Origin: Bacteroidales bacterium M7
GTDB taxonomy: Bacteria > Bacteroidota > Bacteroidia > Bacteroidales > Muribaculaceae
NCBI GenBank assembly: GCA_001689515.1
Contig: LUJR01000039.1
Span: 83,544 to 147,543, forward strand
Direction of reading: 5' to 3'
Length of the DNA: 64,000 nt
The first letter of the stretch is position 1; every line of letters begins with the position of its first letter. Below the pieces are notes generated by a model. The model ran no database searches and was not told where the DNA came from. It saw only the letters and a program-made list of their open reading frames with translations. The position numbers and the translations under genes were made by a program. Positions 48,185 through 64,000 of the stretch are shown here, piece after piece.

Positions 48185-48203
48185 AATAAAATGTTGTGTA
48201 CGT
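48148..48203 (-). terminator. Conserved 3' UTR plus terminator hairpin of cassette Y (embedded in the integrase 3' end)
   Basis: Minus strand, after the stop at 48204: acacaacattttattttacatt, then the hairpin CCGGG..TCC gtga GGA..CCCGG (48148-48171), then CTTTCTTCT. Homologous to 62535-62601. Confidence 0.55.
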
Positions 48204-48777: not shown

Positions 48778-48849
48778 AAACATTGGATGTCCGAGCAATT
48801 GACCGATGCCCGACGGAAGCGTTAGACGCTCAGAGTATTTTGGCAATGG

Positions 48850-48879
48850 CAAAAGTAATGGAAATATTTGAGAAGCAAA
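48850..48879 (-). promoter_or_regulatory. Candidate promoter for cassette Y (-7 TACTTTTG, -33 TTTG)
   Basis: The reverse complement of 48850-48857 is TACTTTTG. TTTG (reverse complement of 48876-48879) lies 18 nt upstream of it. Confidence 0.5.
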
Positions 48880-48918
48880 ATATTTTTATTGATTTTAACA
48901 AAATAATTGCATGAATAT

Positions 48919-48949
48919 TTTGTGGATAATGATTTTATTCGTATCTTTG
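48919..48949 (+). promoter_or_regulatory. Candidate divergent promoter (-33 TTTG, -7 TATCTTTG)
   Basis: TTTG at 48919-48922 and TATCTTTG at 48942-48949, with 19-nt spacing, 46 nt upstream of the ATG at 48995. Confidence 0.5.
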
Positions 48950-48994
48950 TAGTGTAAGAAATCACTAACCCATTAAAGCAGAAAGGAGGTAAAT

Positions 48995-49120
48995 ATGAGA
49001 GACAGAATTAGAACGGTGGTTGCACTGATAGGACGATACTTGGACATAATCGAGACCCAGCGCAACCACCGTGTAGTAGCCGAAATCAGAGGCTTGCTAA
49101 ATGAGTTGCTTAATCTTTAA
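48995..49120 (+). CDS. Possible 41-aa peptide (MRDRIRTVVALIGRYLDIIETQRNHRVVAEIRGLLNELLNL)
   Basis: Below the ORF-track length cutoff. Perfect AAAGGAGG 5 nt upstream of the ATG. Followed by an 8-bp GC hairpin (49126-49148). Confidence 0.45.
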   Translation: MRDRIRTVVALIGRYLDIIETQRNHRVVAEIRGLLNELLNL

Positions 49121-49170
49121 CAAAAGCCCCCGGGTGACAGCCGGGGGCAAATTTACCAAATATATCCGAT

Positions 49171-49503
49171 ATGTACTTAGGAACACGCGAAATTTACGAT
49201 GCAGAGGGCAGCGAAGCCCGCAGAAAAGAATTGATCGCCACAAAGTGGGGCGCAGTTTCAAATGCCTTCATTGAGCTTGAGGGTTTGATCAACAAGACAC
49301 AGCTCGCCGATCAGTATTTCAACAAAAGCCAGGCGTGGCTCTCTCAGAGACTAAATGCCTGCATCTCACATAACAAAAAGACGACATTCACCAAGGAGCA
49401 GTATCACCAGTTGGCGGAAGCTTTCCGCCACATAGCAAAGCGTCTTGAGGCACATGCCGACGAGATAGACGCGGCAGCCCCCGACGGCTCAACAGACGAC
49501 TGA
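49171..49503 (+). CDS. Small phage protein, possibly DNA-binding (DUF5053-like, tentative)
   Basis: 110-aa ORF. The segment TQLADQYFNKSQAWLSQRLN resembles an HTH. The family name is from memory only. Confidence 0.6.
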   Translation: MYLGTREIYDAEGSEARRKELIATKWGAVSNAFIELEGLINKTQLADQYFNKSQAWLSQRLNACISHNKKTTFTKEQYHQLAEAFRHIAKRLEAHADEIDAAAPDGSTDD

Positions 49504-49529
49504 CCGCGCCCCATCAGCGCGGACACATC

Positions 49530-49570
49530 AACGCCCTGCCTCCCGACACACCGCGGATGCAGGGCGTTTT
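49530..49570. terminator. Terminator hairpin between convergent genes
   Basis: 10-bp stem aacgccctgc / gcagggcgtt, with a T-run at 49566-49570. Confidence 0.55.
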
Positions 49571-49573
49571 GCA

Positions 49574-49807
49574 TCATTCCGCCATTTCGGGCACTGCTGC
49601 CATATGTTCCGCTTCGGCGGCGAGGCGTTGCTGCTCCAGCCAGTCGGCGACGGCTGCATCGGTGACCTCGGAATAGTTGTCGGGCGAGTCGCCCTTGCCG
49701 AGGTAGGCGGTGGAGGTGGCTGTGGAAAGGTCGCCGTCGTAGACGATTTTATGTCCGGAGTCGGCAGTGAGCTTGCACATGCTGTTGGGAGTGATTGTCT
49801 GCTGCAT
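49574..49807 (-). CDS. Hypothetical 77-aa phage protein
   Basis: ORF directly downstream of the fibre-like gene on the same strand. No homology was recognised. Confidence 0.5.
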   Translation of the reverse strand: MQQTITPNSMCKLTADSGHKIVYDGDLSTATSTAYLGKGDSPDNYSEVTDAAVADWLEQQRLAAEAEHMAAVPEMAE

Positions 49808-49828
49808 GATGTGTATGGGGTTAAGGGG

Positions 49829-51766
49829 TTATGACAATGTATAGTTTTTGGCGGTGGCTACGGCTATCTCGTCCTCGGTTAGCTGGGCGAGGTTGTCCGC
49901 GCCCATCTGTAGGCGGAGAGTAGTACTCCCCGTGTTGTCGCCGAGGTTGGCTATGAGATTGCGGAGATTGTCAACCGAGAGCACTGAGCTTTTGAAGTCG
50001 ATGCTGCCGGTGAAGCCTGGCTCGATGGTTATGGCTGTAACTGCGGTGCTATTGAGGTAAAATGAGACACCAATCTGAGCCCCGAAATGCAATCTCACGT
50101 CCTTATTGGGCCAGTTAAGTCCAGTAGAGAAAGTAACTACCTTTGGAAGATACACATCTATGTTGGTTGCATTTCGCAGCAAACCGCCGTTGCCCGATAT
50201 GGTAACTGCTGACGGAAGCCTTAATTCACGGAGATTAGGCATGTTCATCGTGAAAAAGCCGTTACCAAAGAATATTGTTTCTACCGAGGGCAAGGTCAGG
50301 CTTTCGATTTTAGGCAGTTTGAAACTTATGCTGCTAATCCACAACGCTTTGAGTTTTGGGAGCGACAAATAGACCAGATTTTCAAGCAGTCCAAACACAT
50401 CTGCCGCCGGTGCTTCCACCAGGACAGGAAGCGAGAGCCGCTTCAAGGCTGGGCAAGCAGCCGCTATAACGCCGGTGGCAGACTCGAGACTCGGGAGGGA
50501 CAACTCAGACAGAAGAGGCAGATTTGATGCAATTGCCCCAGAGGCTCGTTTCAGTTCCAGCAGTGTCAACTGCCGGAGAGTTGCACAGTTGGATGCTATA
50601 GCACGTCTGCATGACTCGAGGTCGGGCATCTCCAGCACCTGTACGTTTCCGCCCGACACTATGGCAGATCCCGACGGCAGCTCCGATACGCCTCCAATGA
50701 CCACGGACGCACCGTATGCGCCTACGGAGAAGTCGTGACCGTCATAGCTGGCGGGGGCAGAGTCGATGAACAGGTTGACGAACGGACGCGCTGTGGAGGC
50801 GGAGAACGTGGGATGTGAGCCGAGACAGGCTATGTCAAGCACCTCCACGCCATCGGGCCACGGCATCGCAAAGAAGTCCTCACGGAAGTAGCATACTGCG
50901 TAGTGGGCGGCTTCGCCGTCGGTGAACGTATGCTCCGCGCCGCTTTCGGCGATCCATGTGCCGTCAGACAGCACACAGGCATCGGCAGCCCCGAGCTTCA
51001 CGGTGTCGCCTGTGAACGAGAAGCCTATGCAGTGGGGATAGTCGGCGCGGCGGTGTCGGTTGACCTCAGCGACCATGTCGTAGCGCGAATAAGCACCCCT
51101 CGCGGTCACATGCTCACGCGCTCCGACAGCGGTATCCGGGATCTGGTAGAGCGTCCTGACTGACTGCGCCATCTCCGCCATGGGCGCATCCGCTGCGGTG
51201 GGTATGCCCTGATCGGTGAGGGCTTGGGCTATCTCGCGCTTGCCCTGTCGGAGATCGCTGATGGTGGCAGCCAGATCAGGCAGCATACCTACGGAAGTCA
51301 TATATTCCTCCCGTGTGCCTTGGTAACCCACATGCACTGCCATGTCATAGGCATCAAGGAGTGCATAGGGCGCAAGCATCTCCATCACCGCACCGTCAGG
51401 AAGCGGCATGTAAGTGCCGCCCTCTGCCACAAGTTCCAAAGGAAGCTCAAGGCTGACATCGCATCTGCGCCTCCCCGTCTCAAACAGCTCGGAGGGCACA
51501 TATGCCGACAGCCGCAGACGAAGCTGACCCGGTGCGAGTCCGTGAGCCTCATGGAACAGACGCAGACCGCCGTCAACTTCGCAACAGTTGACGCATGCGC
51601 CGTCCACACGGCTCGAGACACACGCCCGCGCCTCGCTTTCGGTCCATATCCGGACGTGGATGTCCCCTATCATCGGCAATATGTTCCCGTCCCTGTCAGT
51701 CAGCTTGACAATGAAATCAAGGTCGGAGCGATAGTTTATGTGCGTTATTTTATCTTTTTGTGTCAT
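49829..51766 (-). CDS. Tail fibre / receptor-binding candidate with C-terminal BspA-type leucine-rich repeats
   Basis: 645 aa. The C-terminal ~280 aa show repeated L.L..L......I....F..C..L patterns (for example LRQLTLLELKRASGAIASNLPLLSELSLPSLESATGVIAAACPALKRLSLP). It is the last large gene of the tail module. Confidence 0.65.
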   Translation of the reverse strand: MTQKDKITHINYRSDLDFIVKLTDRDGNILPMIGDIHVRIWTESEARACVSSRVDGACVNCCEVDGGLRLFHEAHGLAPGQLRLRLSAYVPSELFETGRRRCDVSLELPLELVAEGGTYMPLPDGAVMEMLAPYALLDAYDMAVHVGYQGTREEYMTSVGMLPDLAATISDLRQGKREIAQALTDQGIPTAADAPMAEMAQSVRTLYQIPDTAVGAREHVTARGAYSRYDMVAEVNRHRRADYPHCIGFSFTGDTVKLGAADACVLSDGTWIAESGAEHTFTDGEAAHYAVCYFREDFFAMPWPDGVEVLDIACLGSHPTFSASTARPFVNLFIDSAPASYDGHDFSVGAYGASVVIGGVSELPSGSAIVSGGNVQVLEMPDLESCRRAIASNCATLRQLTLLELKRASGAIASNLPLLSELSLPSLESATGVIAAACPALKRLSLPVLVEAPAADVFGLLENLVYLSLPKLKALWISSISFKLPKIESLTLPSVETIFFGNGFFTMNMPNLRELRLPSAVTISGNGGLLRNATNIDVYLPKVVTFSTGLNWPNKDVRLHFGAQIGVSFYLNSTAVTAITIEPGFTGSIDFKSSVLSVDNLRNLIANLGDNTGSTTLRLQMGADNLAQLTEDEIAVATAKNYTLS

Positions 51767-51883
51767 AAAATCGGCATATATGATTGTTGTTTAGAGAATT
51801 ATGCGTATATTTGTATCTGAAGATCGTCCGCAGCCGATTCCGATTGCTATTGCTATCGTGAGAGCTGGCGGACGATTCTGATT

Positions 51884-53473
51884 TTATACGAGGGGAACAA
51901 GACCGAGACCACGTTTGTAGCTGAAATACAGCCAATCAGATTTGACCGCACCATGTACATAGAGCGGAGCAACGCGCCTCACTCTGAATACGCCGCAGCG
52001 CGGAGCGATGAAAAGCGCGGCACCTCCTATCGGCTGACGTTTAATTTTTGGATGGTATTTTTTCCATACCGATTTGCGCCGTGCATATTTTATCCTCTTT
52101 CCGTCAACGCCACGAGGCGCGTTGCCGCCGCTACGCTTGTTGACCCTTTTGCGCACCTGTATCTCCACATGCTTGTCTTTGACAAGCTCCTCAAGGCGGA
52201 AACGCCCTGAATCTGTGTTACTCTCCGGGACTGACAGCCTCCTATGAGGCTGTTGCATTGTTTTGTTGAAGCTGTTGGCAAAACTAAGCCTCCCATCGTG
52301 GTCTATATAGACATATTGCGGATATTCCTCACCATCATCCGGGATGGGCATGGGAAGATATAAACGAGGATGCCACTCTTTACCAACCATAGAGGAGGTA
52401 CATTGTGACAGGTCAAACCTGATAACATCCTGATCAAACACTCCGATAGTGCCAATTCCACCAGTGCTGAAATCGTCATCATTGGGAACCTGGAACTTAT
52501 CAAACAGACGTGAAATCTTTGTATCAACAGCTTGCCCGAAACTATGCGGCACACGGATCTCGGCGCAATAGCGGTCTCCCCCATAAATATCCGACTTGCG
52601 ATAGCGGCATTTATAAACCACCCCGGGACGCGATCCAAGACTGATGGTGCCACGCTGTATGTCGGGACGGATATACGAAGTCAACCTGTCGGTCTCGTGC
52701 GCCACATAATCTGCCATACGCTGCGCCTCATTTGCCGCATCATAGGCTTCCTGTGCCTTGGTCTGATTACCTATCTCGACAAGCTCCGATGATTCCGCGT
52801 CATAGCGGTAGAGATGTCCGTCACAACGAAACACCCTACCGGTCAAAGGTCGGAGCGGAGTGCCTATGTCATCAGTCTCATTATATCCATTGGTAGGCTC
52901 AGCCCTGCCTCCGCCCATGGATGTGTAAAACAGACGGTGGACGGTATCGAATACGATGCTTCCGCTCTTCACGCCAGCAAAAGCCCCCGAAGTGACATCG
53001 CCGAAAAATGTATCAAACGGTAATATGCCGATATCTCCTCTCAGATTGTCAACAGCATTTTCTATCAAACTGCCTACAGACGAATAATCCGGGCATTTAG
53101 CGATACGGCTGTTAAGCTCGGCAAGCATAGCCATCAGAGTCGCATCATCCTTAATGCCTGAGAGAAATGCAAACAGTTCCTTAAGATTGTCGATGCTGTC
53201 CGACAGGTCTCCGGTGCGTATAGCGTTGCACACTGACTCCAAGGCTGCCACACGGTTTCCGAGTGCCGACAATGTAGCCTTGGCATCCTCCACTCCTGAT
53301 GAGCCTGATTTAACCTTTTCATTGAGCCAGCGGAGCACGGTAGCCACTATGACATTAGTAATCTGACCTTTGGCTGTGGCATTTTCCACCTGCTGTATCA
53401 GGGTGTCAATGCGCGCCTGATCTGTGGTGAAATTTGAAAGTAAAGTATCCATATCAATTAAATTTTTCGTCAA
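51884..53473 (-). CDS. Tail fibre / baseplate-associated structural protein
   Basis: 529 aa with an N-terminal coiled-coil-like region. Its position in the tail module supports the call. No motif was recognised. Confidence 0.6.
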   Translation of the reverse strand: MTKNLIDMDTLLSNFTTDQARIDTLIQQVENATAKGQITNVIVATVLRWLNEKVKSGSSGVEDAKATLSALGNRVAALESVCNAIRTGDLSDSIDNLKELFAFLSGIKDDATLMAMLAELNSRIAKCPDYSSVGSLIENAVDNLRGDIGILPFDTFFGDVTSGAFAGVKSGSIVFDTVHRLFYTSMGGGRAEPTNGYNETDDIGTPLRPLTGRVFRCDGHLYRYDAESSELVEIGNQTKAQEAYDAANEAQRMADYVAHETDRLTSYIRPDIQRGTISLGSRPGVVYKCRYRKSDIYGGDRYCAEIRVPHSFGQAVDTKISRLFDKFQVPNDDDFSTGGIGTIGVFDQDVIRFDLSQCTSSMVGKEWHPRLYLPMPIPDDGEEYPQYVYIDHDGRLSFANSFNKTMQQPHRRLSVPESNTDSGRFRLEELVKDKHVEIQVRKRVNKRSGGNAPRGVDGKRIKYARRKSVWKKYHPKIKRQPIGGAALFIAPRCGVFRVRRVAPLYVHGAVKSDWLYFSYKRGLGLVPLV

Positions 53474-54638
53474 ATTCGTCCGAGAAAAGCCGTGGGGGCA
53501 ATCCTGTCTCTCCGTCTGCCATCGGAGGCAGCATTGCCATCTCCGATGCGCTGACTCTGAATGTCAACGTGAAGCTCTGAGGAGCATTGCCGTTGAGCGA
53601 TATATCCAGTTCGTCAGCCCCGGGGACAGCCTTGACCAGCGACGGTCCCAGCCCGTACAGATCCACAGATGAAGCCCCGAGCATGTCAAGCAGCAGCGGC
53701 AGCCGCCCGGCGGGTATCGGATCTGTCTCTATAGTGATCGTCGCCGACATGGCTGCCCGGTTACGCACCCGCTCGAAGTCTGCCACTGCTGCATCCCAGC
53801 GCATAAAGGCGCCATCGGTATCGTCGCTGTCATCATCTCCAAACGCCGGTGTACACGATATTTTGCCTGAAAGGCATATCACTTCCGGGACTTCAAAGGA
53901 GTTAAGGAAGCGGGCTGACAATTTATATCTGTACGATTTCGGGCATCCCTCGGTGATAATGATCCGGGCAACCGTCTTATCATTCAGCGTCATCTCATAG
54001 AGGTTAGACAGCGCATAATGGTTGTCAAAAATCTCCCGTCGGGCAGCATCGACATCAAGCGCATAGATTCCCCTGGTGTCAATCTCAGTCTCCATGACCG
54101 CGCCATATAGCAATTCGCGGAGCTTCAGACGGGCTGGACTGTCAGAGGTGGCATCAGGTACACAGAAATACAACGGCATCAGTTCGTCCTCGGGTATCTT
54201 GAGCAGCCATCCGTTAGATCGCGTTGTCAGGAAAGGTGCGCTTATCCCTATCAGCGGCACCGGGCGTGAGGCACGGAGATGTTGCTTAGACATCCGCCCT
54301 GGGAGGGCATACGCCGTCATGGTGTCATAACCAGACGGGGACACATCTACCTGATATGAGGTAAATGTAAGCTGCGTGCCAGCACCCGGCACCACCGTTT
54401 TCAGCCATCCGTCACCATCGGGTGCAGGATACGGCGGTATGAAATCCGACACCACATCCGACACATCGACTTCCACGGTCTGCCCGTCATCAAGGCTCAC
54501 CTTGCCTGTATAAATGTCGTTGTGTTCCAGGAGCACGGAATACTCGCAGACGGCAGGGAATCCGCCGTTGTTAGTGCATTTAAGCAACATCGGATTGCCA
54601 GCCAGCACTACAGGTGAGTCATCAGGGCTGAATTTCAT
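53454..54638 (-). CDS. Phage structural (baseplate-like) protein
   Basis: 394-aa ORF overlapping both neighbours (ATGA at 54635-54638). Confidence 0.6.
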   Translation of the reverse strand: MKFSPDDSPVVLAGNPMLLKCTNNGGFPAVCEYSVLLEHNDIYTGKVSLDDGQTVEVDVSDVVSDFIPPYPAPDGDGWLKTVVPGAGTQLTFTSYQVDVSPSGYDTMTAYALPGRMSKQHLRASRPVPLIGISAPFLTTRSNGWLLKIPEDELMPLYFCVPDATSDSPARLKLRELLYGAVMETEIDTRGIYALDVDAARREIFDNHYALSNLYEMTLNDKTVARIIITEGCPKSYRYKLSARFLNSFEVPEVICLSGKISCTPAFGDDDSDDTDGAFMRWDAAVADFERVRNRAAMSATITIETDPIPAGRLPLLLDMLGASSVDLYGLGPSLVKAVPGADELDISLNGNAPQSFTLTFRVSASEMAMLPPMADGETGLPPRLFSDEFDEKFN

Positions 54639-54859
54639 AGCACTATGGTTATGGCATTGACATCCCCGTAACGCGCCGTGCGCTTGCCAGCCATCGCCAG
54701 CAGCCGCTCGCGCTCGGGAGACGGGGTGGTGATAAATCGGTAAAAATCGCTGTTGCAGCCCATGAAATGCTCACGCCACAGGTCACGCAGAGACATTGTG
54801 GTATCTTCATCCGGAAGCATCGGGGCGGTATTCAAAGCTGTACTATCCATATGCCACAA
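54635..54859 (-). CDS. Hypothetical 74-aa phage protein
   Basis: Small ORF coupled by an ATGA overlap to the downstream gene. Confidence 0.5.
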   Translation of the reverse strand: MWHMDSTALNTAPMLPDEDTTMSLRDLWREHFMGCNSDFYRFITTPSPERERLLAMAGKRTARYGDVNAITIVL

Positions 54860-54892
54860 AAGTAATAGCTCGCATCAATCTGTCATAGGACA

Positions 54893-57349
54893 TCACGACT
54901 GCTTGTAACGTGCCTTGAGTTCCACTGTATATTTCGCGATGATTTTGACATCTCCGAGATGCTCCTGAAGCTCCGGGGGATTAACGCGGTCAGGATCCAT
55001 GTAATACTCTCCGATATGGTAGCCGATCCATACGCGGTATTTGTCGCGCTTGGTTTGCGATATGCCCTCAGGAGCGACGAGCGATGTGTCCGTCTCCCAA
55101 GTAGGCTCCATCTTCGCATGCCAGTAGTAATCGGCACGGACATCGGTATCATACGGCGGCACATAATCGGGATTGCGCTCCTTCCAGGATTTCACAGCAG
55201 CGTCACGGCAGACCTGTGATTGTATGACCGTATCGATGTCATCGCGGTAGAAGTACCACACAAGCTCACGCCCTCCGGGCTCGAACGTCGGGACACCCTG
55301 CTCAGCCACGATGTCATACGTGCCCAGCGGGGTCAACGACCGCATGGTCATATCCACGACATCAACCGGCATCAGAGGCAGCGAGTATGTAAACGTGTCG
55401 GGGATGCACTTCAACCCCCTCACGGTGACAGGATCAAACGGATGCACCTCCGGCAGCTGTGACGGACTGAAGCTGACTGGCAGCTCCACTGTCCGCGCCC
55501 CATGGCGGAGCAGCTCGTCATACTGCCGCCAGTAGCGGTCAAACAGTCCGCCCTTGAACTGGAACAGCAGCGACAACCGATGCTCCTTGCCTCCGAACCT
55601 GATGCGCTTGCCGTCAACTGTCTCGGGACAGAACATCCCTACTGTACCGCTGCGTCCAAGATACACGGCATCATGATTGTCAGGATTGGTAAAGGCAAAC
55701 ATAAACGCCAGCGGTGTCTCTGTGACATCTTCATCTTCCGAACCTTTGATGTAAGTGTGGAAGTGCCTGGAGCCAGCGAGATACATGGGAGCATATCCGA
55801 GAAAAGAAGCCATATGGGCTTCTCCTGAGAAACTATAGCGGACAAGCTCTATCGGCACACACTCGTCATCACCCGACAGCTCCAACGCTTCCATGCCCGA
55901 TGGTGACGGATCCCAGTTGAAGAAGCTCGTTGAACTTTCCACCGGCTGTCCGTTGTCACGGTCAAGTTTATGCCACATACATGTCCCCACCTCGTATGCC
56001 AGGATGTTACGCTCCTTGCGTGTAGCCCCTGACGATGCTTTGGCGGCGGTTCTCCCGGCTTCACCGCGGTCATCCCCACGGTCATCAACTTCATCATCCC
56101 AGTCTCCGCGCGGATCATCCCACGGGTCATCAGGCTCGGGCCAGTCTCCCGGGTCATCAGGATCCACCTCCGGGTCATCCTCATATGTGGGCCACTCGGA
56201 GTCAAAATCGCCGGTATCGGCGTTGAGCTTCCACTTGACGATCTCACGTCCATAATACAGACCGTCAAGCGTCAGTCCCTTCATGAAGTCCTCAAACCGT
56301 TCGCATGCCGGGGCTGCTCCCTCAAGACTCGTCTTGGCAGAGAGTTTCAGATAGCGCGGTTCCTCGAAATTGACCATAGGATAATTAGCCATCCTGTCAC
56401 CCCACTCTGCCACAGGAGCTTTGGCAAGTATTTCGCTCAGAAGCTCAAGGCGCACAGTCCGCGCATCAGAGTCAACGGCATAGACCAGACCGAAGCGCAC
56501 CCACAGGGCGTTAAGAAACTGCGTGACGGTCACATCCGGCAGCAGTTCCTTGTAACGGATAGTTGAAGTGACGAGCGCATCGGCGGCATTGTTGAGCACT
56601 ACTAAGCGCGAAAGTTCAAGTGATTCTTTAAAAGGGTTACTTGAAAGCTCCACCCCTAAATCTGCAAATATCAGCTCTATAACGCGCCATACCCTTACGA
56701 ACGGAGAAAGACCGTAGTTTGTAGGCACATTGACCTCGGTGTATTCATTGCCTATCATGCGCCACACTTTCTGAGGCTGCTGCATTGACTCAAGATGCGG
56801 GGCATTGAGCATCTCGTAGGCATAGTGTACCTGACCGAATTCGTCCTCGCTGACCTTGGGCGCGGCAAGCACCACCGGAAACACCGCCAGATCCTCATAT
56901 TCGCCATGCCTGTAATCGCCGGCATAGATACGTGTCATGGTTTCATGCACCACATCTTCCCTTATGTCCCGGTCATACAGCTTTATCTCTGGGAGACCTG
57001 ACAGGTCGGACAGCTTGCGGTTTTGCCACGCCTCGTAAGCCACGGAGTTGTCAAAACCTATATTGAGGGTTATACCCTCCTTGACTGAGGCGGAGACTAT
57101 GTTGACCGTGCCGGAGCGAGCCAGTGCGCCGCTGATGACCATGCACTTCCGCGCCTCCTGGCGCGGGTCGGCGCAGGCATCAAGGCGCGTGGGGAAGCCG
57201 AGCAGACGGAGATTGCGCGGAGTGGCTGGCACAGTCGCAGGGAGTGACTGTGTGCCTGTCTCGTTGAATATCGGATTTGTGACCTCCATATCGAGAGTGA
57301 ACGCAGCAGGGAGGTCAAGAGCTTCGTTGTTGATTTCTATACGTACCAT
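54893..57349 (-). CDS. Large distal-tail / baseplate protein with an acidic Asp-Pro-rich insert
   Basis: 818 aa, immediately downstream of the tape measure gene, which is the usual position of distal tail or tail-associated proteins. The acidic insert spans about aa 381-430. Confidence 0.65.
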   Translation of the reverse strand: MVRIEINNEALDLPAAFTLDMEVTNPIFNETGTQSLPATVPATPRNLRLLGFPTRLDACADPRQEARKCMVISGALARSGTVNIVSASVKEGITLNIGFDNSVAYEAWQNRKLSDLSGLPEIKLYDRDIREDVVHETMTRIYAGDYRHGEYEDLAVFPVVLAAPKVSEDEFGQVHYAYEMLNAPHLESMQQPQKVWRMIGNEYTEVNVPTNYGLSPFVRVWRVIELIFADLGVELSSNPFKESLELSRLVVLNNAADALVTSTIRYKELLPDVTVTQFLNALWVRFGLVYAVDSDARTVRLELLSEILAKAPVAEWGDRMANYPMVNFEEPRYLKLSAKTSLEGAAPACERFEDFMKGLTLDGLYYGREIVKWKLNADTGDFDSEWPTYEDDPEVDPDDPGDWPEPDDPWDDPRGDWDDEVDDRGDDRGEAGRTAAKASSGATRKERNILAYEVGTCMWHKLDRDNGQPVESSTSFFNWDPSPSGMEALELSGDDECVPIELVRYSFSGEAHMASFLGYAPMYLAGSRHFHTYIKGSEDEDVTETPLAFMFAFTNPDNHDAVYLGRSGTVGMFCPETVDGKRIRFGGKEHRLSLLFQFKGGLFDRYWRQYDELLRHGARTVELPVSFSPSQLPEVHPFDPVTVRGLKCIPDTFTYSLPLMPVDVVDMTMRSLTPLGTYDIVAEQGVPTFEPGGRELVWYFYRDDIDTVIQSQVCRDAAVKSWKERNPDYVPPYDTDVRADYYWHAKMEPTWETDTSLVAPEGISQTKRDKYRVWIGYHIGEYYMDPDRVNPPELQEHLGDVKIIAKYTVELKARYKQS

Positions 57350-57361
57350 GGTGATAAGTCA

Positions 57362-60300
57362 TCATTTTCTGGTGAACGGACTGCGGGCTTTGTCAAGCGT
57401 GGATCCGGCGCGCTGGATGTCTTTGTAGACCACGTAAGCCCGCATCTTGCGCATGGATCTGACTGTGGAGCGGAGGTCGGTCAGCGTGTCGCGCAGGGCT
57501 GCGACTTCCTCTGTCGACACGCTGGCAGCTGTGGGTGATGATGTAAATCCGCCATCGGCATATCCCTGATGGGCGGAGACAGCCGGAGCAAGACGGTTAC
57601 GGCGTATAGACTCTATGGTGCCCACGGCATCCACCACATATGGGTGTGTCATTATAGGCTTGGGGATTACATACTCGCCGCGGTGCACCACTCCGGCTAC
57701 CTCGTAGCGTCCGCCGTTGCCGGTGTAACCGCCATCGGAGTAGCCGGTAAGCTGACGAGTGACGGCGGGTGTGGATGTGTCGGACTTCTTCGCCGTGCGC
57801 TTAGGCTGTAGGTTCTTGATGCGCTCACGCTCGGCATTGGCTGTGGCTACCTGTATCGCACCTGTGGCTGCAATCAATGCTATTGCCGGGGCAGCAAATG
57901 CACCCAGCTGCGAGTATGCGGTCATAATCGCTACCGCCGTGTTGGCTATGATTTCGGCGACCTTGACGGCGAAATTAGCATCGGCATATTTCTTCTGAAT
58001 ATCCAGCTTGGCATTCTCCTTCTCCTCCTCGAGGGCGGCGGTGTCCTGACCGTTGTTTTCAGCCTGACGGATCAATTCGTCATACTTGGCATCGGAGGCG
58101 GCGATTTCATACTCCTGCATCGCCCCTACGGTGCTGGCGGCGAGGCTTTGGAAATAGGAGTAGTATTTCATCGCGTTTTTCATCTGGAGCTGGAGCTTCT
58201 TCTGCTGATACTGCTTTTCTTTCAGGAGACCTTGGGCGTGCTGCTGGTCAAGCAGAGCCATCTCGGCGGCGTATTCGTCAGCCCATGAGCCTGACACCTG
58301 AGCCTGGTGGTCGGTAAGCTGCACGAGTCTCTCGGCATCGAGCTGCGCCAGTGCGCGGTTCTTGGCTTCCTGAAGGGCTATGGTCTGGTCGGCGGTGAGC
58401 CCTTCCTGAGCGAGCATGCCGTCATACATGGCGATTACGGCAGCGCGGCGCACGTCCCACTGCTGCTCCATCGACTCCACGCTGTGGTCGTTGGCTATCA
58501 GTTCGCGGTACTTCGCCATGAAGTTGCCTGTGTCGGTCAGTATCTCGTTCTGCTTCGTCCGGATGGCTGCTGCCACCTTCGCCTCCGCCTTCTCGCGGTC
58601 ATCAGCAGACTCGTAAGTAAGCCCCTTGACCGTCTTGAGATAGCTTTGCAGCTCGGCAAGTTCCTGAGCATGGGCTTGCTTGCGGTAGACCATCAGCTCC
58701 ATGTCGGCGACCTCCTGGGTCTTGGTGCCGTCGATGACTGCCTGCTGCTGGGTACGCTCCTTCTCCTTGAGGTTGTCAGCAAACTGGGTCATGCGCTCCT
58801 CATGCCCCTTCTGTTCCTCGGCGATGATTGACTTGTTGATTTCGCCCTGTGCCTTGGTCAGAGTGCCTTTCCAGAGTATCAGCTGCATGTCTATCTCGTC
58901 AAGGGTCTGGTCATGCGACTCACTGGTAGATTCTCGCAGCTTTTTCAGAGCATCGATGGTCTCTTGGGCATAACGTTTCGTTTCCTCGGCAGTGGCGAGG
59001 GCATATGCGCCGGCTGTCATGGACGGTTTCTTATCGTCAATCTTCTGTTGACGCTCAAGGTGCTCGTTCTTGATGGGCGCGGTGACCTTCTTTAGCGAGT
59101 CATCCTGATACGTGCCCGGAGTATGCTTCTCAGCCTGAGTGCCGAGAAGTTCCTTCCTCTGGTTTTGCAGCTCCTTGAGTCTGGCAGACAGAGCCTTTAT
59201 GTCGGTGCCGGGCTTGGCATCCTTGAGCTGCTTCTGCAAGCCCTTGATCTCCGTGTTGAGCTTCTTGAGCTTGGTAGCGGCATCATCGGCAGTATTAGCT
59301 ACGACACCGAGCGGTTTACCCAAATCATTCTCGACATCAAATTTTGAAGTGTCAATATCACCATACATTTTCTCTAATTGGTCATTGACAGGTTTAATAG
59401 CCTCATAATTTGTTTTCTTCTCGTTATATGGGGCAATAAGTGATCGCAATTCGTCTCTCATAGCGTCACGTTCAGACTTCAATTGCTCGATGACAGGATC
59501 CAAATCTCTACGACCGAAGCTATGATCCCTCTTCCATTCGTATTCAGAAATTTGCAGGTTCTTCTTCTTTATTTGATCCTGCAAGTCTGTTATTTTATCA
59601 TATTCCAATCCCAGTTCGATTCCAAGTCTGAGCATCTCTTTTTCATTTTCCTTCATCAACTCCTGTGCTGCTTTGGCTTTGGCAACTTCACGGATGTTTT
59701 TAGCAAGACGGGCATACTGAATGCACGCCTTACCTACCATGATTTCTTCCGTTGACATATTGGCAAAATATGCGGGGTATAGACGTTGCAATTCTTTTGC
59801 CGCTGCTATACGCCTATTTGTAGATTTATACTGATTGGTCGCGGCATTGTAGAGCTTGTCAAGATTGGCAAGCTCCTCAGTAGCATATTTTTTTGTCCCG
59901 GCACTTAGATCGCTGATGCTTTTGCGGAACTCTTCAGTTCGTTTCTTAGCTTCTTCAAGTTTTTGTGCCGATTCATCAGCCTTGTCACCGAACAGGTCAA
60001 ATGCCACGATGACAGCCGAGATGACCGAGAGCAGCAACCCGAGAGGATTCAGTTTTACTATCAGGTTAAAAGCTCTCATACATGCTCCAGCTCTCGTCAC
60101 ATTTGTAGCAAACAGGGCTTTGGCGGCATTGACGAGCAGCAATAAACCCTTGTAAGCGGTCAGGAGTACGGATTGCCCTTTGATGGCTGCTGTCTCAAGC
60201 AATGTGGCTTTGGTGGAGCGTGTGATCCACAGGTAATAGGCTTTTTTCACCACGGTGGTCAGTATCAGACCTGCGCGGTAAGCAGCCCATGCGCCGGCTG

Positions 60301-61780
60301 CTGTGATAATCAGCCCTGACATGCGGCCTATAAGCTCTATCAGAGTGCCTATCCATGACACCACTGCCGACATGGCATCAATAATGGCTTTAAGCGGTCC
60401 CTTTGCCTCGTAGAATTTCAGCACAACACCCTCCACGGTCGACTCCAATATAGCCAATGCGCCTGACACATTGTCGCCCATCTCCTCGCTCATGGCGTTA
60501 AACTGGTCGGTACAGCCGGAGACCGAGGCTTGCAGATTGGTCAGCGTGTCGGCATTGGCGAGGAAGCTTGAGAAAGCGGAGACGGAGCGTTTGTCGGTAA
60601 GCTCGAGCACGGCATTAAGGTCTATCCCCTCGGCGGTGAGTTTCTTGAGACCTGCCACTAAGTCACCGAGGTTGGTAACAGGCTGCCCGATAGCCTGAGC
60701 CAGCTTGCCGTTGCTGTCGGCAAGATTGAGCAGTATGTTGCGAGTGGCAGTGGCTGCCGTGGAGGCATCAAAACCGGCATTGGCGAGCGCACCGAGCAGA
60801 GCGGTCGTTTCTTCCACGGTGAAACCAAACGAGGCAGCCACAGGACCCACGGTACTCATAGCGTTCTGCAAGAAACTGAAATCAAGTGCGCTCTTGGTTG
60901 TGCCTATAGCCAGCGTGGCAAGCATCTCGTCAACCTCCGAGGCTTCTTTGCCGAATATGCGCATGGATGCTCCGGCAAAAGCGGCAGCCGAGCCGAGATC
61001 CGTGTCTACAGCCTTGGCGAATTTCAGCACCGCCGGAGTCATGTCTTTAATTTGGTCCTTGGCAAAACCGAGTTTGGCAAGCTCTATCTGAAGGCTCGTC
61101 ACCTGGGCAGCCGTGTATGATGTCGTAGCACCGAGCCTACGCGCTTCATCGGTCAGATCCTTAATATCCTTCTTGGTAGAACCCAGCACAGCAGCCAGCT
61201 TACTGTTGGCTTTCTCAAACTCTATGATGGTCGATATGGCTTGACGGAAACCGTTGACCACATAGCTCAATAAGAAAGCACCAATGGCGTATAAGGCACC
61301 TTTGACGATTTCCTCTACCTTGGAGAAACCAAGGAAGCTACGCTTAGTCTTTTCGCTCTCTCCTGTCATCTGAGACATCGCAGTTTTGGTCTCGTCGATG
61401 CGGCGGCGCAGGTCTGCAAACCGTTCGGGCTCCGTTGCCTTGGATGTATTGTTGAGTTCGCTTCTTAACTCCTTGAGACGCTTGTTGAGCTGGGCGATTG
61501 TCAGGACTGACGGATCAATGGTCTGTCGGATAGCTCTCATCTTGGAATCATTTTCCGACAGTCGGGCATTAATGCCTTTCAGCTCTTTTTGAAGGTCAAC
61601 ATACGATTTCGAACCCTTGAGATTGGCTTTCTCAAGCTCAAGCAGAGATTTTTTCAATTCCCTTTGACGGGAGGTAAGTTCACGGCTGGACTTCTCCAGC
61701 TTGTGCATTTCCCTCTGAGCTTCAGAGGTATTGAGCGATATCGCCCATTTGATATGGTCTTCGCTGATTTTCCTTGCCAT
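57362..61780 (-). CDS. Phage tail tape measure protein
   Basis: 1472 aa from the ATG at 61780 (MARKISEDH). It has a TP901-type TMP core (LGATTSYTAAQVTSLQIELAKLGF ... ALLGALANAGFDASTAATATRNILLNL), hydrophobic segments and long coiled coils. The track's TTG start at 61810 lies inside a hairpin. Confidence 0.9.
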   Translation of the reverse strand: MARKISEDHIKWAISLNTSEAQREMHKLEKSSRELTSRQRELKKSLLELEKANLKGSKSYVDLQKELKGINARLSENDSKMRAIRQTIDPSVLTIAQLNKRLKELRSELNNTSKATEPERFADLRRRIDETKTAMSQMTGESEKTKRSFLGFSKVEEIVKGALYAIGAFLLSYVVNGFRQAISTIIEFEKANSKLAAVLGSTKKDIKDLTDEARRLGATTSYTAAQVTSLQIELAKLGFAKDQIKDMTPAVLKFAKAVDTDLGSAAAFAGASMRIFGKEASEVDEMLATLAIGTTKSALDFSFLQNAMSTVGPVAASFGFTVEETTALLGALANAGFDASTAATATRNILLNLADSNGKLAQAIGQPVTNLGDLVAGLKKLTAEGIDLNAVLELTDKRSVSAFSSFLANADTLTNLQASVSGCTDQFNAMSEEMGDNVSGALAILESTVEGVVLKFYEAKGPLKAIIDAMSAVVSWIGTLIELIGRMSGLIITAAGAWAAYRAGLILTTVVKKAYYLWITRSTKATLLETAAIKGQSVLLTAYKGLLLLVNAAKALFATNVTRAGACMRAFNLIVKLNPLGLLLSVISAVIVAFDLFGDKADESAQKLEEAKKRTEEFRKSISDLSAGTKKYATEELANLDKLYNAATNQYKSTNRRIAAAKELQRLYPAYFANMSTEEIMVGKACIQYARLAKNIREVAKAKAAQELMKENEKEMLRLGIELGLEYDKITDLQDQIKKKNLQISEYEWKRDHSFGRRDLDPVIEQLKSERDAMRDELRSLIAPYNEKKTNYEAIKPVNDQLEKMYGDIDTSKFDVENDLGKPLGVVANTADDAATKLKKLNTEIKGLQKQLKDAKPGTDIKALSARLKELQNQRKELLGTQAEKHTPGTYQDDSLKKVTAPIKNEHLERQQKIDDKKPSMTAGAYALATAEETKRYAQETIDALKKLRESTSESHDQTLDEIDMQLILWKGTLTKAQGEINKSIIAEEQKGHEERMTQFADNLKEKERTQQQAVIDGTKTQEVADMELMVYRKQAHAQELAELQSYLKTVKGLTYESADDREKAEAKVAAAIRTKQNEILTDTGNFMAKYRELIANDHSVESMEQQWDVRRAAVIAMYDGMLAQEGLTADQTIALQEAKNRALAQLDAERLVQLTDHQAQVSGSWADEYAAEMALLDQQHAQGLLKEKQYQQKKLQLQMKNAMKYYSYFQSLAASTVGAMQEYEIAASDAKYDELIRQAENNGQDTAALEEEKENAKLDIQKKYADANFAVKVAEIIANTAVAIMTAYSQLGAFAAPAIALIAATGAIQVATANAERERIKNLQPKRTAKKSDTSTPAVTRQLTGYSDGGYTGNGGRYEVAGVVHRGEYVIPKPIMTHPYVVDAVGTIESIRRNRLAPAVSAHQGYADGGFTSSPTAASVSTEEVAALRDTLTDLRSTVRSMRKMRAYVVYKDIQRAGSTLDKARSPFTRK

Positions 61781-61782
61781 AG

Positions 61783-61822
61783 AAAAAGGTAGATTTGCGT
61801 TTTGTGGCAAATCTACCTTTTC
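61783..61822 (-). terminator. Strong hairpin plus T5 ending 2 nt before the tape measure ATG
   Basis: Perfect 15-bp stem pairing 61784-61798 with 61807-61821, and an 8-nt loop. On the minus strand it is followed by TTTTT then CT then ATG. Confidence 0.6.
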
Positions 61823-61843
61823 AATATCTGGTTTTAAAGGACG

Positions 61844-62476
61844 TTAACCGCCGCCAATTCCACCGCCGATTCCTGAACCAATCCCTATACCAGGCACCCA
61901 GGCTCCACCAGTGTCCTTCGGCATCGGCTTATTGAACTCGTAGCCATCACAAAGCCCCTCTTTATAACCGTCCCTCCGACCAGCTTTGTAACCTTTCTTG
62001 TAGGCATCAAAGTAGTCATCAGGCAGATTGTCGGGAAATTCAGTACCGACAATCTCAAGGCGTAACCGCTCTATTTCGCTGTCTATTTTCTCAGCACTCA
62101 TGCCGTCTCCGAGCAGAAATGTGTCATCTGCTTTCTCTCGCCCCTTATCGTAGCCGTCATCGTAGCCTTCGTCATAGCCACTCTTATAGCCACTTTCTTC
62201 CTCGGTATGCTCGTCATCGCGGTCCCAGTAGGGTATCTCCGGGGGTGTGGGCTTGTCTGCCGGGATGTCAAACGTGGCTTTGCGTCCAGAGGGCGTAAAG
62301 ATGCACCAATAGAGCCAAAACAGAGCCATATAGCAGCCGAAAGCCGCGCCGCAGAGCTTCACGCCCTGCCACAGACCGTCATGTGCCAGCCCGTACCAGA
62401 TGCAGCCGCCGAACACCGCGCACCACACATAGGGCATCCACCATACGCCTCCGTCGTTTTTCTTCTTACGTGCCAT
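61844..62476 (-). CDS. Membrane protein with Gly/Tyr-rich repeats
   Basis: 210 aa from the ATG at 62476 (MARKKKNDGG). Two TM helices, GY(K/D).GY repeats, and a C-terminal GIGIGSGIGGGIGGG. Confidence 0.6.
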   Translation of the reverse strand: MARKKKNDGGVWWMPYVWCAVFGGCIWYGLAHDGLWQGVKLCGAAFGCYMALFWLYWCIFTPSGRKATFDIPADKPTPPEIPYWDRDDEHTEEESGYKSGYDEGYDDGYDKGREKADDTFLLGDGMSAEKIDSEIERLRLEIVGTEFPDNLPDDYFDAYKKGYKAGRRDGYKEGLCDGYEFNKPMPKDTGGAWVPGIGIGSGIGGGIGGG

Positions 62477-62534
62477 AGCTGTTAACCGTTTTCTCAAATA
62501 TAGCGAAAATAATTGTCTTTTCCAAGCAAAAGCC

Positions 62535-62601
62535 GGGGAATCCTCACGGACTCCCCTCTTTGGCTCAAACGAAAATGTAAAAAAAATGTATGTTGTATGT
62601 C
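62535..62601 (-). terminator. Conserved 3' UTR plus terminator hairpin of cassette X
   Basis: Minus strand, after the stop at 62602: acatacaacatacattttttttacatt, then the hairpin GGGGA.TCC gtga GGA.TCCCC (62535-62556), then GGCTTTTGC. Homologous to 48148-48203. Confidence 0.55.
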
Positions 62602-62817
62602 TTATTGGATGTCTGGCTCTATGAAACCTTCGGGGTCAGCATCGCGTAGTGCCTTGATCAGCTCACCCGTAATGGCAAGCTCCATGCGGATACGTTCAAA
62701 TTCTTCGGGCTCCACGTTGTCGATACAGGAGCAATATACCGTCATCAACGCTTCGCGTGTCTGCATGCGTGTATATCCGCTGCGGACAGTAATGGAGTGG
62801 TCGGTGCTGTGGGTCAT
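62602..62817 (-). CDS. Acidic 71-aa protein, paralog of the 69-aa protein at 48204-48413
   Basis: The ATG overlaps the HNH stop (ATGA). AAAGGAGG lies 6 nt upstream. By my count it has 14 acidic and 7 basic residues. Confidence 0.7.
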   Translation of the reverse strand: MTHSTDHSITVRSGYTRMQTREALMTVYCSCIDNVEPEEFERIRMELAITGELIKALRDADPEGFIEPDIQ

Positions 62818-63122
62818 CTCTCACCTCCTTTCTCTATCATGGGGCGGTAGGCCCCCACGGTCTGTACATGGCGGTGGCACTCCTTGCAGATGACACGCAC
62901 ATTAGCCACAGAGTGACGGCGCGGATGCGCCGGAGGGAGCAGATGGTAGAGGGTGCAGCCCGAAGTTACGGGCAAGCCGCACAGCTCGCACCGTCCACCG
63001 GCATACGCCATCCGTGCGGCTCTGACATCCTTGTTGCTACGGTCGGGAGTATTGCGCCTGTTGCGCTTGGCCCGGCGTGATATATAGATATGCACCCCGA
63101 GCACCTTGATATGCAGATTCAT
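62814..63122 (-). CDS. Small HNH endonuclease
   Basis: CELCG ... YHLLPPAHPRRHSVANVRVICKECH fits a Cys4 zinc plus H-N-H layout. Very Arg-rich. The ATG at 63122 has AAAGGAGG 6 nt upstream. The track start at 63143 is the alternative. Confidence 0.8.
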   Translation of the reverse strand: MNLHIKVLGVHIYISRRAKRNRRNTPDRSNKDVRAARMAYAGGRCELCGLPVTSGCTLYHLLPPAHPRRHSVANVRVICKECHRHVQTVGAYRPMIEKGGER

Positions 63123-63139
63123 CACTTGCCTCCTTTCAT

Positions 63140-63514
63140 TCATTTCCAGTCGAGACGGGATACGGCGCGGTATTCTTTACAATTCAAAAACATCGCGTAC
63201 ACATTTGAGTTAAACAGTTCACCATTGATGTGGACATACGAGATGACAAACACATAGCTGCCGTTACAATTTGATTCAGGTTTCACGCATATGCACCCAG
63301 AATCTGGAGAAATTTCCAGTTTCAGTGGGTTCCTTTTAAAGACTCGGTTGGCAACATCAACAGCTCTCTCAAGTTCCGAATATAACATAGCCAAAGCTTT
63401 TTCGTTGGCGAGTATGCAGTGCTCGAACTGCTTTGCCACAGCCTGTAGCATGGCACCTCGTTTTGTCTTGCCGGCGGTGGCGTAGGTGGTCACATTTGAT
63501 ATGAAGTATCTCAT
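63140..63514 (-). CDS. Hypothetical 124-aa protein
   Basis: ATG with AAAGGAGG 6 nt upstream. Its stop overlaps the alternative HNH start. No homology was recognised. Confidence 0.6.
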   Translation of the reverse strand: MRYFISNVTTYATAGKTKRGAMLQAVAKQFEHCILANEKALAMLYSELERAVDVANRVFKRNPLKLEISPDSGCICVKPESNCNGSYVFVISYVHINGELFNSNVYAMFLNCKEYRAVSRLDWK

Positions 63515-63846
63515 GCCCGACCTCCTTTCTGTGCTGCGCGGTTGACGATAAGACGGAAGTAGAGGAGTGTGGCTGCGATGGAGGCGAGTGCGCCGTCAGC
63601 TGCCATCACTGCCGCGCCACGGCTGGGACTGTCGGCGAGAGCCATCACGCCGAGCATGGCGGTCATCATGCCGAGGGCTGCGACTGCCACGAGGGCGCGC
63701 TCAAGTGTCACGCCTCGGAGGGCGGCGCGGACAATGCGCCGGGCGGTCTGCGCCGCCGTAAGGGGTTGGGGAACTAAGGAGATGCCTGTCATCACTCTAA
63801 TAGGGCTCTCCGGGCGGCCTGTGGCCGGAAGTGTCAATGCTTTCAT
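63511..63846 (-). CDS. Small protein with two predicted TM helices (111 aa)
   Basis: The ATG at 63846 lies 2 nt after the conserved leader hairpin, the same architecture as at 48631. Hydrophobic segments LVAVAALGMMTAMLGVMAL and LASIAATLLYF, with a basic tail. The track start at 63969 would place the leader structure inside the CDS. Confidence 0.55.
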   Translation of the reverse strand: MKALTLPATGRPESPIRVMTGISLVPQPLTAAQTARRIVRAALRGVTLERALVAVAALGMMTAMLGVMALADSPSRGAAVMAADGALASIAATLLYFRLIVNRAAQKGGRA

Positions 63847-63989
63847 ATGCGTCAATTTGGTTAGCGAGGCAGACAAAGAAACGGCTGCCGTTCCGTTGCT
63901 AACCAAATTGACGCAGTCTCTCGCGAGCGCATAAATTTGCGGAAAGGCAGCCGTTATAGGCTGGAGCATGAGGCTATAAAAATAGCCCG
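63847..63989 (-). promoter_or_regulatory. Structured leader element, copy X
   Basis: Contains the 14-mer CGGGCTATTTTTAT (reverse complement of 63976-63989). AACGGCTGCC pairs with GGCAGCCGTT over 10 nt. A perfect 17-bp stem pairs 63849-63865 with 63898-63914. The loop is conserved relative to copy Y. Confidence 0.6.
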
Positions 63990-64000
63990 CATATGATACC

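Follow-up and report, generated by a model that had tools for sequence, protein, structure and literature searches.

A small HNH nuclease gene and its acidic neighbour in a Bacteroidales prophage: toxin and antidote, or separable parts of a leader-headed cassette?

When the gene of a small basic nuclease overlaps that of a small acidic protein, do the two encode a toxin and its antidote, or are they neighbours for some other reason? This question is raised by a prophage of Bacteroidales bacterium M7, part of which lies in the 64,000-nucleotide (nt) stretch of contig LUJR01000039.1 that was analysed here as a whole and is called the window below. In this prophage a gene for an HNH nuclease of 102 amino acids (aa) is followed by one for an acidic 71-aa protein, both within a run of coupled genes referred to here as cassette X, and a second run, cassette Y, ends in a gene for a 69-aa paralog of the acidic protein. 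The original prediction took the HNH and 71-aa genes for a toxin-immunity or toxin-antitoxin (TA)-like pair. We prefer, with a probability of roughly 0.6, to read them as neighbours that can be separated, both belonging to a cassette whose genes are coupled in translation and gated by an RNA leader; that they are toxin and antidote is improbable, and the nuclease gene is most likely a dispensable, mobile passenger of the homing type.

The gene pair and its separability

The description from which the toxin-immunity idea started was reproduced in every respect, including the coordinates, the overlap and the charge counts of the HNH and 71-aa genes, the coupling of the 69-aa gene to an unrelated 73-aa gene in cassette Y and the order of the genes that follow the pair (a Gly/Tyr-rich membrane protein, then the tape measure protein, PF10145). 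The genes and junctions concerned are the following:

63511-63846, minus strand: first gene of cassette X, a basic 111-aa membrane protein (MKALTLPA...), whose ATG lies 1 nt after arm C of the leader
63140-63514, minus strand: middle gene of cassette X, 124 aa, 43% identical to a 135-aa gene of locus L006
62814-63122, minus strand: HNH nuclease gene, 102 aa, ATG at 63122, the optional insert in cassette X
62602-62817, minus strand: acidic 71-aa gene, last gene of cassette X
48410-48631, minus strand: first gene of cassette Y, 73 aa, not a membrane protein
48204-48413, minus strand: acidic 69-aa paralog, last gene of cassette Y
62814-62833, minus strand: HNH/71-aa junction AGAAAGGAGGTGAGAGATGA, one of four copies of the cassette junction repeat
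63119-63138, minus strand: 124-aa/HNH junction TGAAAGGAGGCAAGTGATGA, another copy of the repeat and the upstream boundary of the HNH insert
63511-63530 and 48410-48429, minus strand: the other two copies of the junction repeat

The open reading frame (ORF) of the nuclease extends over 62814-63143 (109 aa), with AAAGGAGG (63120-63135) preceding the ATG at 63122, and its stop codon overlaps the ATG of the 71-aa gene as ATGA. The 73-aa/69-aa junction of cassette Y has the same ATGA overlap and the same AAGGAGG, a sequence resembling a Shine-Dalgarno (SD) site. BLASTP aligns residues 19-57 of the 71-aa protein with residues 20-58 of the 69-aa protein over 39 positions without gaps, 15 of them identical (E 2e-8), which confirms the paralogy that had been noticed by eye.

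The acidic genes are found in company other than that of a nuclease. Locus L006 comes from a related phage that shares the tape measure protein and the tail genes; its cassette is made up of a membrane protein, a 135-aa protein and the acidic 72-aa protein P0005, with no HNH gene. In locus L015 an acidic protein 83% identical to the 71-aa protein of the window (P0002) is encoded beside an integrase and coupled to a 73-aa protein with 90% identity to its counterpart in the window; in the window itself and in L016 the 73-aa protein is coupled to a paralog of the 69-type and in L015 to one of the 71-type, and L015 and L016 differ only in this terminal gene. The acidic family follows three unrelated genes, namely the HNH gene in the window, a 124-aa-like gene in L006 and the 73-aa gene, and one 73-aa upstream gene accepts either of two paralogs that are just 33-38% identical, as if a single toxin were served by two such dissimilar antidotes; for these reasons cognate toxin-antidote behaviour is unlikely. 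The survey of related phages for the acidic family and its upstream partners, which had been proposed along with the toxin-immunity idea, thus far from supporting it, gave neither strict co-occurrence with HNH nor co-variation.

The nuclease gene, for its part, can be missing where its neighbours are kept. An index of 5.8 billion proteins contains only two homologs of the HNH protein, 53% and 49% identical to it, both from another type of phage (L007-L013) in which the genes of an 85-aa membrane protein, the HNH protein, an acidic protein of 84 or 81 aa and a 102-aa protein follow one another in this order, all coupled by ATGA. An IMG/VR contig, L176, represents an HNH-less allele of the L007 phage, with a membrane protein 97.6% identical and an acidic protein 96% identical to those of L007, and its membrane and acidic genes are coupled directly by ATGA without an HNH gene between them. 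The flanks of the two alleles are 92-97% identical at the nucleotide level and the flanking proteins 96-98% identical, and the extra 309-320 nt of L007 are bounded by an 11-nt direct repeat, AGAAAGGAGGT. The same geometry is seen when the window is set against L006, the HNH gene lying between TGAAAGGAGGCAAGTGATGA and AGAAAGGAGGTGAGAGATGA where L006 has a single GGAAAGGAGGTGAGTTATGA. A tblastn search for the HNH protein returned no homolog in L006, in L176, in 80 portal-related loci or in 120 leader-bearing IMG/VR loci. The gene is found in two lineages only, in both of which it is bounded by the junction repeat and has HNH-less alleles; judged by these alignments it is a discrete, dispensable unit in a repeated junction.

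The leader RNA and the module family

By aligning the regions upstream of cassettes X and Y with those of the cassettes in L006, L007, L012, L015 and L016, we found that a shared structured leader of about 200 nt heads every cassette. Read from 5' to 3', it has a -7 box of the Bacteroidetes type (TAnnTTTG, or GACATTTG), which stands 3-5 nt ahead of arm A; after arm A come a conserved core containing the hairpin GGGCT(A/T)TTTTTATGCCC, then arm B and, beyond a loop of 30-60 nt, arm C, which the start codon of the first gene follows at a distance of 0-8 nt. Its parts in the window, together with the hairpins at the other end of the cassettes, are:

48632-48857, minus strand: complete leader of cassette Y
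48850-48857, minus strand: -7 box of the cassette Y leader, TACTTTTG
48827-48844, minus strand: arm A of the cassette Y leader
48684-48700, minus strand: arm B of the cassette Y leader
48634-48649, minus strand: arm C of the cassette Y leader
63847-64000, minus strand: 3' part of the cassette X leader, within which the window ends
63972-63988, minus strand: conserved hairpin of the cassette X leader, GGGCTATTTTTATAGCC
63898-63915, minus strand: arm B of the cassette X leader
63848-63865, minus strand: arm C of the cassette X leader
62535-62556, minus strand: terminator-like hairpin (GGGGAGTCCGTGAGGATTCCCC then GGCTTTTGCT) that ends cassette X
48139-48169, minus strand: homolog of the cassette X terminator hairpin, with which it shares an exact 16-nt core; it lies within the 3' end of the integrase ORF, which is convergent

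The window stops just short of arm A and the -7 box of cassette X (L001 8756-8785), and gene callers lengthen the first gene of this cassette to 152 or 207 aa, running across the leader.

Arm B is the perfect complement of arm C, and arm A is a near-copy of arm C at the 5' end, which allows B to pair with either A or C in mutually exclusive helices, the B:C helix abutting the first start codon; a further long-range helix, D:D', covaries. The arm sequences are wholly different between copies, even inside one genome, and 85 distinct C arms were counted. The mean energy of the cognate duplexes is -18.0 kcal/mol for A:B and -21.1 kcal/mol for B:C, against -5.4 and -6.1 kcal/mol for non-cognate arms. 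In a 20-sequence MAFFT alignment the covariation score was 0.365 for A:B with D:D' (0.185 in shuffles) and 0.429 for B:C (0.137 in shuffles); for both sets of helices none of 500 shuffles reached the observed value, and slid controls reached at most 0.156. The X and Y leaders fold better than shuffled sequences (z-scores of -5.5 and -4.4), and between their minimum-free-energy and centroid structures they switch between A:B and B:C. Since 23 of the 31 differences between arms A and C turn a Watson-Crick pair with B into G.U, the pairing is to be sought in RNA rather than in DNA recognition. Arm C is rich in A and C (A 44%, C 29%, G 13%), a composition to be expected where initiation makes no use of an SD sequence.

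Two other interpretations of the leader were considered and given up. The arms might have been invertons or recombination sites acting at the DNA level, which was set aside in view of their free divergence between copies and the G.U-compatible differences just mentioned, and a simple attenuator model was dropped as the inner hairpin and its T-run are not consistently terminator-like across leaders.

A leader profile run with nhmmer gave 69 matches in the first 96 loci, all on the gene strand, and 124 matches in 118 of 120 IMG/VR loci, the latter having been retrieved with the core motif. Copies are located at L001 8756-8974, L006 8382-8657 and 9044-9306 and L007 7503-7798, with some 190 more in L012-L216. 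Rfam 15 contains no relevant match at E <= 1 for window positions 46000-64000, L010, L012, L015 or L016, the sole matches on the leader hairpin being spurious microRNA models far below their gathering scores, and in the literature that we searched neither the leader nor the module headed by it is described. We regard the leader as a candidate for a new cis-regulatory RNA in phages of gut Bacteroidales. Outside the window, just upstream of the X leader, L001 8485-8700 carries a shorter leader-like element, made up of a GACATTTG box, a 24-nt arm that pairs with its complement about 45 nt downstream, and a hairpin with a T-run; this looks like a mini-leader arranged in tandem with the full one.

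Following the coupled genes behind every leader yielded 133 unique complete modules in phages and prophages of Bacteroidales, from metagenome contigs of the human gut and viral contigs of IMG/VR, and cassettes X and Y are two copies of this module. Its order is -7 box, leader, first gene, zero to three variable middle genes, small acidic protein and a gap or terminator. The first gene encodes a small basic membrane protein in 102 of the 133 modules; an acidic protein of at most 100 aa is present in 112, almost all of them without a nuclease, and the commonest architectures, with TM for the transmembrane protein and mid for a middle gene, are TM-mid-mid-mid-acidic and TM-acidic. This survey makes the acidic terminal gene the rule and the HNH gene a rare passenger. 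Modules are met at four sites: ahead of a gene block of terminase size, ahead of the lysis/portal block, immediately in front of the tape measure gene (as cassette X is) and beside the integrase (cassette Y). It had also been proposed that the window holds a module with swappable effectors and a common partner, and of this the conserved ends and exchangeable middle genes stand, while the common acidic gene turns out to be the standard terminal gene and not the partner of a nuclease.

Within the modules the genes are joined in a recurrent way, by an extended SD-like AAAGGAGG together with an ATGA overlap, as a consequence of which the upstream proteins end in ...KGGx. AGGAGG is present at 224 of the 371 internal junctions and the ATGA overlap at 223, and none of the 133 first genes has AGGAGG upstream. 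In the window, AAGGAGG-N3-9-ATG is observed 8 times where 0.9 would be expected, and 4 of these are cassette junctions. Such junctions are odd, because the ribosomes of Bacteroidia have been reported to be blind to SD sequences (PMC7797042, PMC9976891, PMC13000453). A further protein family recurs after the acidic gene, at L007 8572-8880, at L012 4240-4559 and in about 55 module genes from IMG/VR, and has the C-terminal motif G-[YF]-[RK]-x(2,4)-R-x-G-x-S-G-x-x-F-x-W-M-x-x-L.

In the mechanism that we propose, the leader would act as an RNA switch on the initiation of the first gene, off when the B:C helix occludes the initiation region of that gene and on when the A:B helix leaves this region free, A:B possibly being stabilised by a factor bound to the conserved core. 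The downstream genes would then be translated by termination-reinitiation at the SD/ATGA junctions. The HNH gene would be a free-standing nuclease gene that entered at one of these standard junctions, and the junction repeats would favour the exchange of genes between cassettes, with which the L015/L016 pair is consistent.

The two proteins and the readings weighed

The assignment of the 102-aa protein to the HNH nucleases is weak but consistent across libraries: Pfam PF01844 matches with E 3.9e-4 and 21.0 bits, just below its cut-off of 21.4, and several PHROG HNH families match down to E 2e-7. The protein is strongly basic (20 K+R, 6 D+E, isoelectric point (pI) 10.7), and its active-site pattern CxxC...H...N...CxxCH, with CELC at residue 45, His60, Asn74, CKEC at residue 79 and His83/85, is intact and retained in both homologs found. 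A profile search against the PDB ranks the HNH domain of a group II intron maturase first (E 0.004), then IscB, Gme HNH (4H9D) and McrA. In the AlphaFold2 (AF2) model the core has a predicted local distance difference test score (pLDDT) of 77-83 and the basic N-terminus is disordered (residues 1-28, pLDDT below 50); Foldseek matches this model to the zinc-finger HNH domains of Cas5-HNH, Cap5, McrA, Cas9, phage GVE2 HNH (5H0M), Gme HNH and T4 endonuclease VII. Colicin DNases are absent from the 24 sequence matches of the PDB profile search and from the top 50 structural matches of Foldseek, and motif and model together place the protein in the [CxxC]2 zinc-finger class of HNH nucleases, not with the colicin DNases. 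The GC content of the gene and its GC content at third codon positions, compared with those of the flanks, are uninformative on horizontal origin. At L003 9676-9981, which corresponds to window positions 62814-63143, a frameshift cuts the HNH ORF to 101 aa and uncouples it from the 71-aa gene; this variant, P0010, is found on 8 contigs.

An intact catalytic motif in a gene that relatives can dispense with, and that sits with a membrane protein in an accessory, regulated module, would also suit an effector nuclease that does not home, placed under the module leader to degrade host or competitor-phage DNA in the lytic cycle, for takeover of the cell or superinfection exclusion. We consider this unlikely, as PADLOC returned only noise for the HNH protein (E >= 0.009), with no defence or anti-defence family above it, and presence or absence of the gene at an exact junction is more simply explained by gene mobility.

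The structural matches to Gme HNH and GVE2 HNH recall another role, that of the packaging nucleases of the HK97 gp74 type, which are small and have a [CxxC]2 zinc site with His-Asn-His (PMC3592412); the window protein matches this class in size and motifs. The HNH protein would then assist the terminase in cos cleavage, and the 71-aa protein would be unrelated to it. It is encoded in the structural-gene region, in the same orientation, and almost every contig of this phage species carries it. Its neighbours, however, are the 124-aa and 71-aa genes, the membrane protein and the tape measure gene, with no terminase-like gene adjoining; the loci fetched from L006, L176 and 80 relatives, which have the portal-like and neighbouring structural genes in common with this phage, do not contain it; and it is a discrete unit inside an accessory module, of which a frameshifted variant circulates. 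Pfam and PHROGs did not identify the terminase, portal and capsid genes of the related phages, so the distance from HNH to terminase is given by synteny and size only. A packaging function, which had already been thought to fit this locus poorly, seems quite unlikely to us.

The acidic proteins (14 acidic and 7 basic residues and pI 4.6 for the 71-aa protein; 14, 5 and 4.2 for the 69-aa protein) belong to a family so small that word-based protein searches return, for each paralog, itself and one variant about 80% identical. A family profile built from four sequences finds three 50%-identity clusters in all among 1.84 billion representative proteins, the third being the 72-aa protein P0005, and for this reason the likeness between the 71-aa and 69-aa proteins is better attributed to shared ancestry than to composition. 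The same profile gave one doubtful 24-residue match, in a Breznakibacter metagenome-assembled genome, among GTDB representative genomes and no match in IMG/VR; by these searches the family is very small and confined to this lineage of phages. Pfam, PHROGs, PADLOC and NCBIfam have nothing for the 71-, 69-, 73-, 124- and 152/207-aa proteins. In the AF2 model of the 71-aa protein two helices, at residues 17-34 and 37-58, form a hairpin with a core pLDDT above 90, for which Foldseek found nothing significant (best E 3.1 in the PDB and 1.4 in BFVD), its non-significant matches being hairpins of a generic kind, among them Rop (E = 7) and the C-terminal domain of UvrB. Neither an Im-type four-helix immunity fold nor a Colicin_Pyocin-type domain was found in this protein by Pfam, AF2 or Foldseek. 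With the acidic proteins of other modules the 71/69-aa family gives no BLASTP alignment and hhalign probabilities of 0.2-5%; among those other proteins only the 77-92-aa and 80-84-aa groups are linked, and weakly so (hhalign 26%, E 7e-4).

The toxin-immunity reading of the original prediction, in which the HNH protein is a toxic DNase that the 71-aa protein binds and neutralises and cassette Y is a second pair with a different toxin, has in its favour the tight coupling of a basic nuclease to an acidic protein in an order that recurs in a second phage lineage, but is very unlikely now that the acidic family has been met without HNH in L006, cassette Y, L015 and L016, that the 84-aa counterpart persists in the HNH-less L176, that such a terminal gene is normal in mostly nuclease-free modules, and that neither an immunity-like fold nor any match in the TA and defence libraries accompanies an HNH domain of non-colicin type.

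What weighs against our own reading, that the HNH and 71-aa genes are separable parts of a leader-gated cassette, should be set out as well. In both HNH-bearing lineages the HNH gene stands directly upstream of the acidic gene, and by a faint hhalign signal (probability 5%, E 0.0075) the acidic families found behind HNH in these two lineages may be related, so that some functional link is possible. The relatives were viewed as loci of 2-21 kb only, and a divergent HNH gene may be present elsewhere in those genomes. Orphan immunity genes exist in polymorphic toxin loci, and occurrence without HNH is not absolute proof. The HNH-less allele could equally have come from deletion between the 11-nt repeats, and neither the library scans nor the AF2 model of the HNH protein revealed a domain beyond the nuclease core and the basic N-terminal stretch. 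The AF2 alignments were shallow, with 5 and 3 sequences (5 for the 71-aa protein). Finally, how the leader would switch and what the acidic protein would do are deduced from sequence, and homing from the presence or absence of the gene, with a putative target and co-conversion.

As to that role, the predicted hairpin of the 71-aa and 69-aa proteins is probably the terminal component of the module and acts with the first protein or in regulation of the module rather than as a nuclease inhibitor. A more ambitious joint reading would have the membrane protein and the acidic hairpin form a leader-gated, hitherto undescribed regulatory system, repeated at the heads of late blocks and beside the integrase and read through the SD/ATGA junctions, with HNH homing at the repeated junction driving the shuffling of cassettes and the acidic protein perhaps serving as the trans-acting partner of the leader; we offer it tentatively and, taken as a whole, lean against it.

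The leader RNA gives a handle on the control of gene blocks in the poorly understood phages of gut Bacteroidales, and the SD/ATGA junctions could make it testable when the ribosomes of Bacteroidia expose their anti-SD sequence. The HNH-plus and HNH-minus alleles of L007 and L176 constitute a clean natural pair for the study of homing at a repeated junction. A word of caution also follows for annotation, in that charge and gene coupling alone are insufficient to infer toxin-immunity pairs.

Prophage setting and comparison with known systems

The left part of the prophage makes up the last 17 kb of the window and is integrated adjoining a tRNA-Ser gene (46764-46851). The methylmalonyl-CoA mutase encoded by the flanking host DNA clusters with proteins of Duncaniella and Muribaculaceae, and the prophage belongs to a Duncaniella-like host of the Muribaculaceae. 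Its sequence is very frequent in public assemblies, the 71-aa protein being indexed in 570 blocks, and blastn of positions 61800-64000 against the INPHARED phage collection gave no match. The remaining phage genes run on the minus strand past the end of the window. Further features are:

46994-48184, plus strand: tyrosine integrase
57362-61810, minus strand: tape measure protein, PF10145
61844-62497, minus strand: 217-aa Gly/Tyr/Asp-rich membrane protein, 3' of cassette X and followed by the tape measure gene
49171-49503, plus strand: DUF5053 (PF16476) paralog between the tail fibre genes and cassette Y, an exception to the minus-strand rule
48995-49120, plus strand: 41-aa ORF (MRDRIRTVVALIGRYLDIIETQRNHRVVAEIRGLLNELLNL) with a strong AAGGAGG SD sequence at 48983, divergent from the cassette Y leader
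61784-61821: perfect 15-bp palindrome spanning the 3' end of the 217-aa gene and the start of the tape measure gene

A small divergent ORF comparable to the 41-aa one is present in L016, and other DUF5053 paralogs of the same prophage lie at L001 6462-6716 and 8025-8357. The N-terminal part of the 217-aa protein, with two transmembrane segments, is conserved (70% identical over 76 residues to a 118-aa protein of L006), and its C-terminus is an unrelated Gly/Tyr/Asp repeat region; in Pfam, PHROGs, PADLOC and NCBIfam the protein has only low-complexity FliH/Yae1-like repeat matches. The 10 kb upstream, seen in L001, contain portal-like, DUF6712, lysozyme and accessory genes. Among them, about 1.2 kb upstream of cassette X and outside the window, is an adjacent DUF4160/DUF2442 gene pair (L001 6932-7589), which by family annotation would be a more conventional two-gene, TA-like accessory candidate than the HNH/71-aa pair.

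Three copies of the motif GGACACC..AATGTAAAA(A/T)AAATGT occur (46959-46998, 48139-48200 and 62525-62600 in plus-strand coordinates), the first at the start of the integrase gene, the second at its end, where cassette Y has its 3' flank, and the third 3' of cassette X, in a flank that resembles the final codons of the integrase ORF (ESSRTP). These copies may be a duplication scar or protein binding sites.

Set beside known systems, the nuclease gene comes close to the free-standing HNH homing endonuclease genes of phages, such as T4 MobE and other intron-less HNH genes. It shares with them its small size, a place between conserved genes where it is present or absent at one site in near-identical genomes, translation signals of its own, a sporadic phylogenetic distribution and an intact catalytic motif, but differs in having no recognisable DNA-binding module beyond its basic tail and in being inserted at a repeated SD/ATGA junction rather than in a unique gene sequence. 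With the cos-site nucleases (HK97 gp74, Gme 4H9D, GVE2 5H0M) it has in common a length of about 100 aa, the [CxxC]2 and His-Asn-His motifs, basic character and a phage origin; unlike them it does not adjoin a terminase or cos, nor is it kept in relatives with homologous structural genes. The order of a basic nuclease gene and a gene for a small acidic helical protein is that of the colicin E-type DNase/Im and polymorphic toxin pairs, from which the locus departs in the HNH subclass, the two-helix hairpin and the lack of strict co-occurrence or co-variation. The predicted core of the 71-aa protein, an acidic antiparallel two-helix hairpin, is similar in size to Rop of ColE1, although no significant similarity links the two and RNA binding by the 71-aa protein would be pure speculation.

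As for the cassettes, phage morons are promoter-gene-terminator units inserted between essential genes, and X and Y resemble them in possessing a promoter-like box and a terminator-like hairpin and in lying between or beside essential modules. In contrast to morons, they belong to one large homologous family with a complex leader and fixed first and last genes, and they recur before major late blocks. Leader RNAs with mutually exclusive helices are familiar from translational riboswitches and attenuators, and leaders at the heads of operons from the UpxY-dependent 5' untranslated regions of Bacteroides and from lambda PR'-qut. The leader described here is like these in being a long conserved 5' element with anti-sequestor and sequestor arms next to a start codon, and in having paralogous copies that head different operons; it differs in belonging to no Rfam family, in a decoy arm A that nearly copies the initiation region, and in first genes that encode small membrane proteins rather than NusG-like ones.

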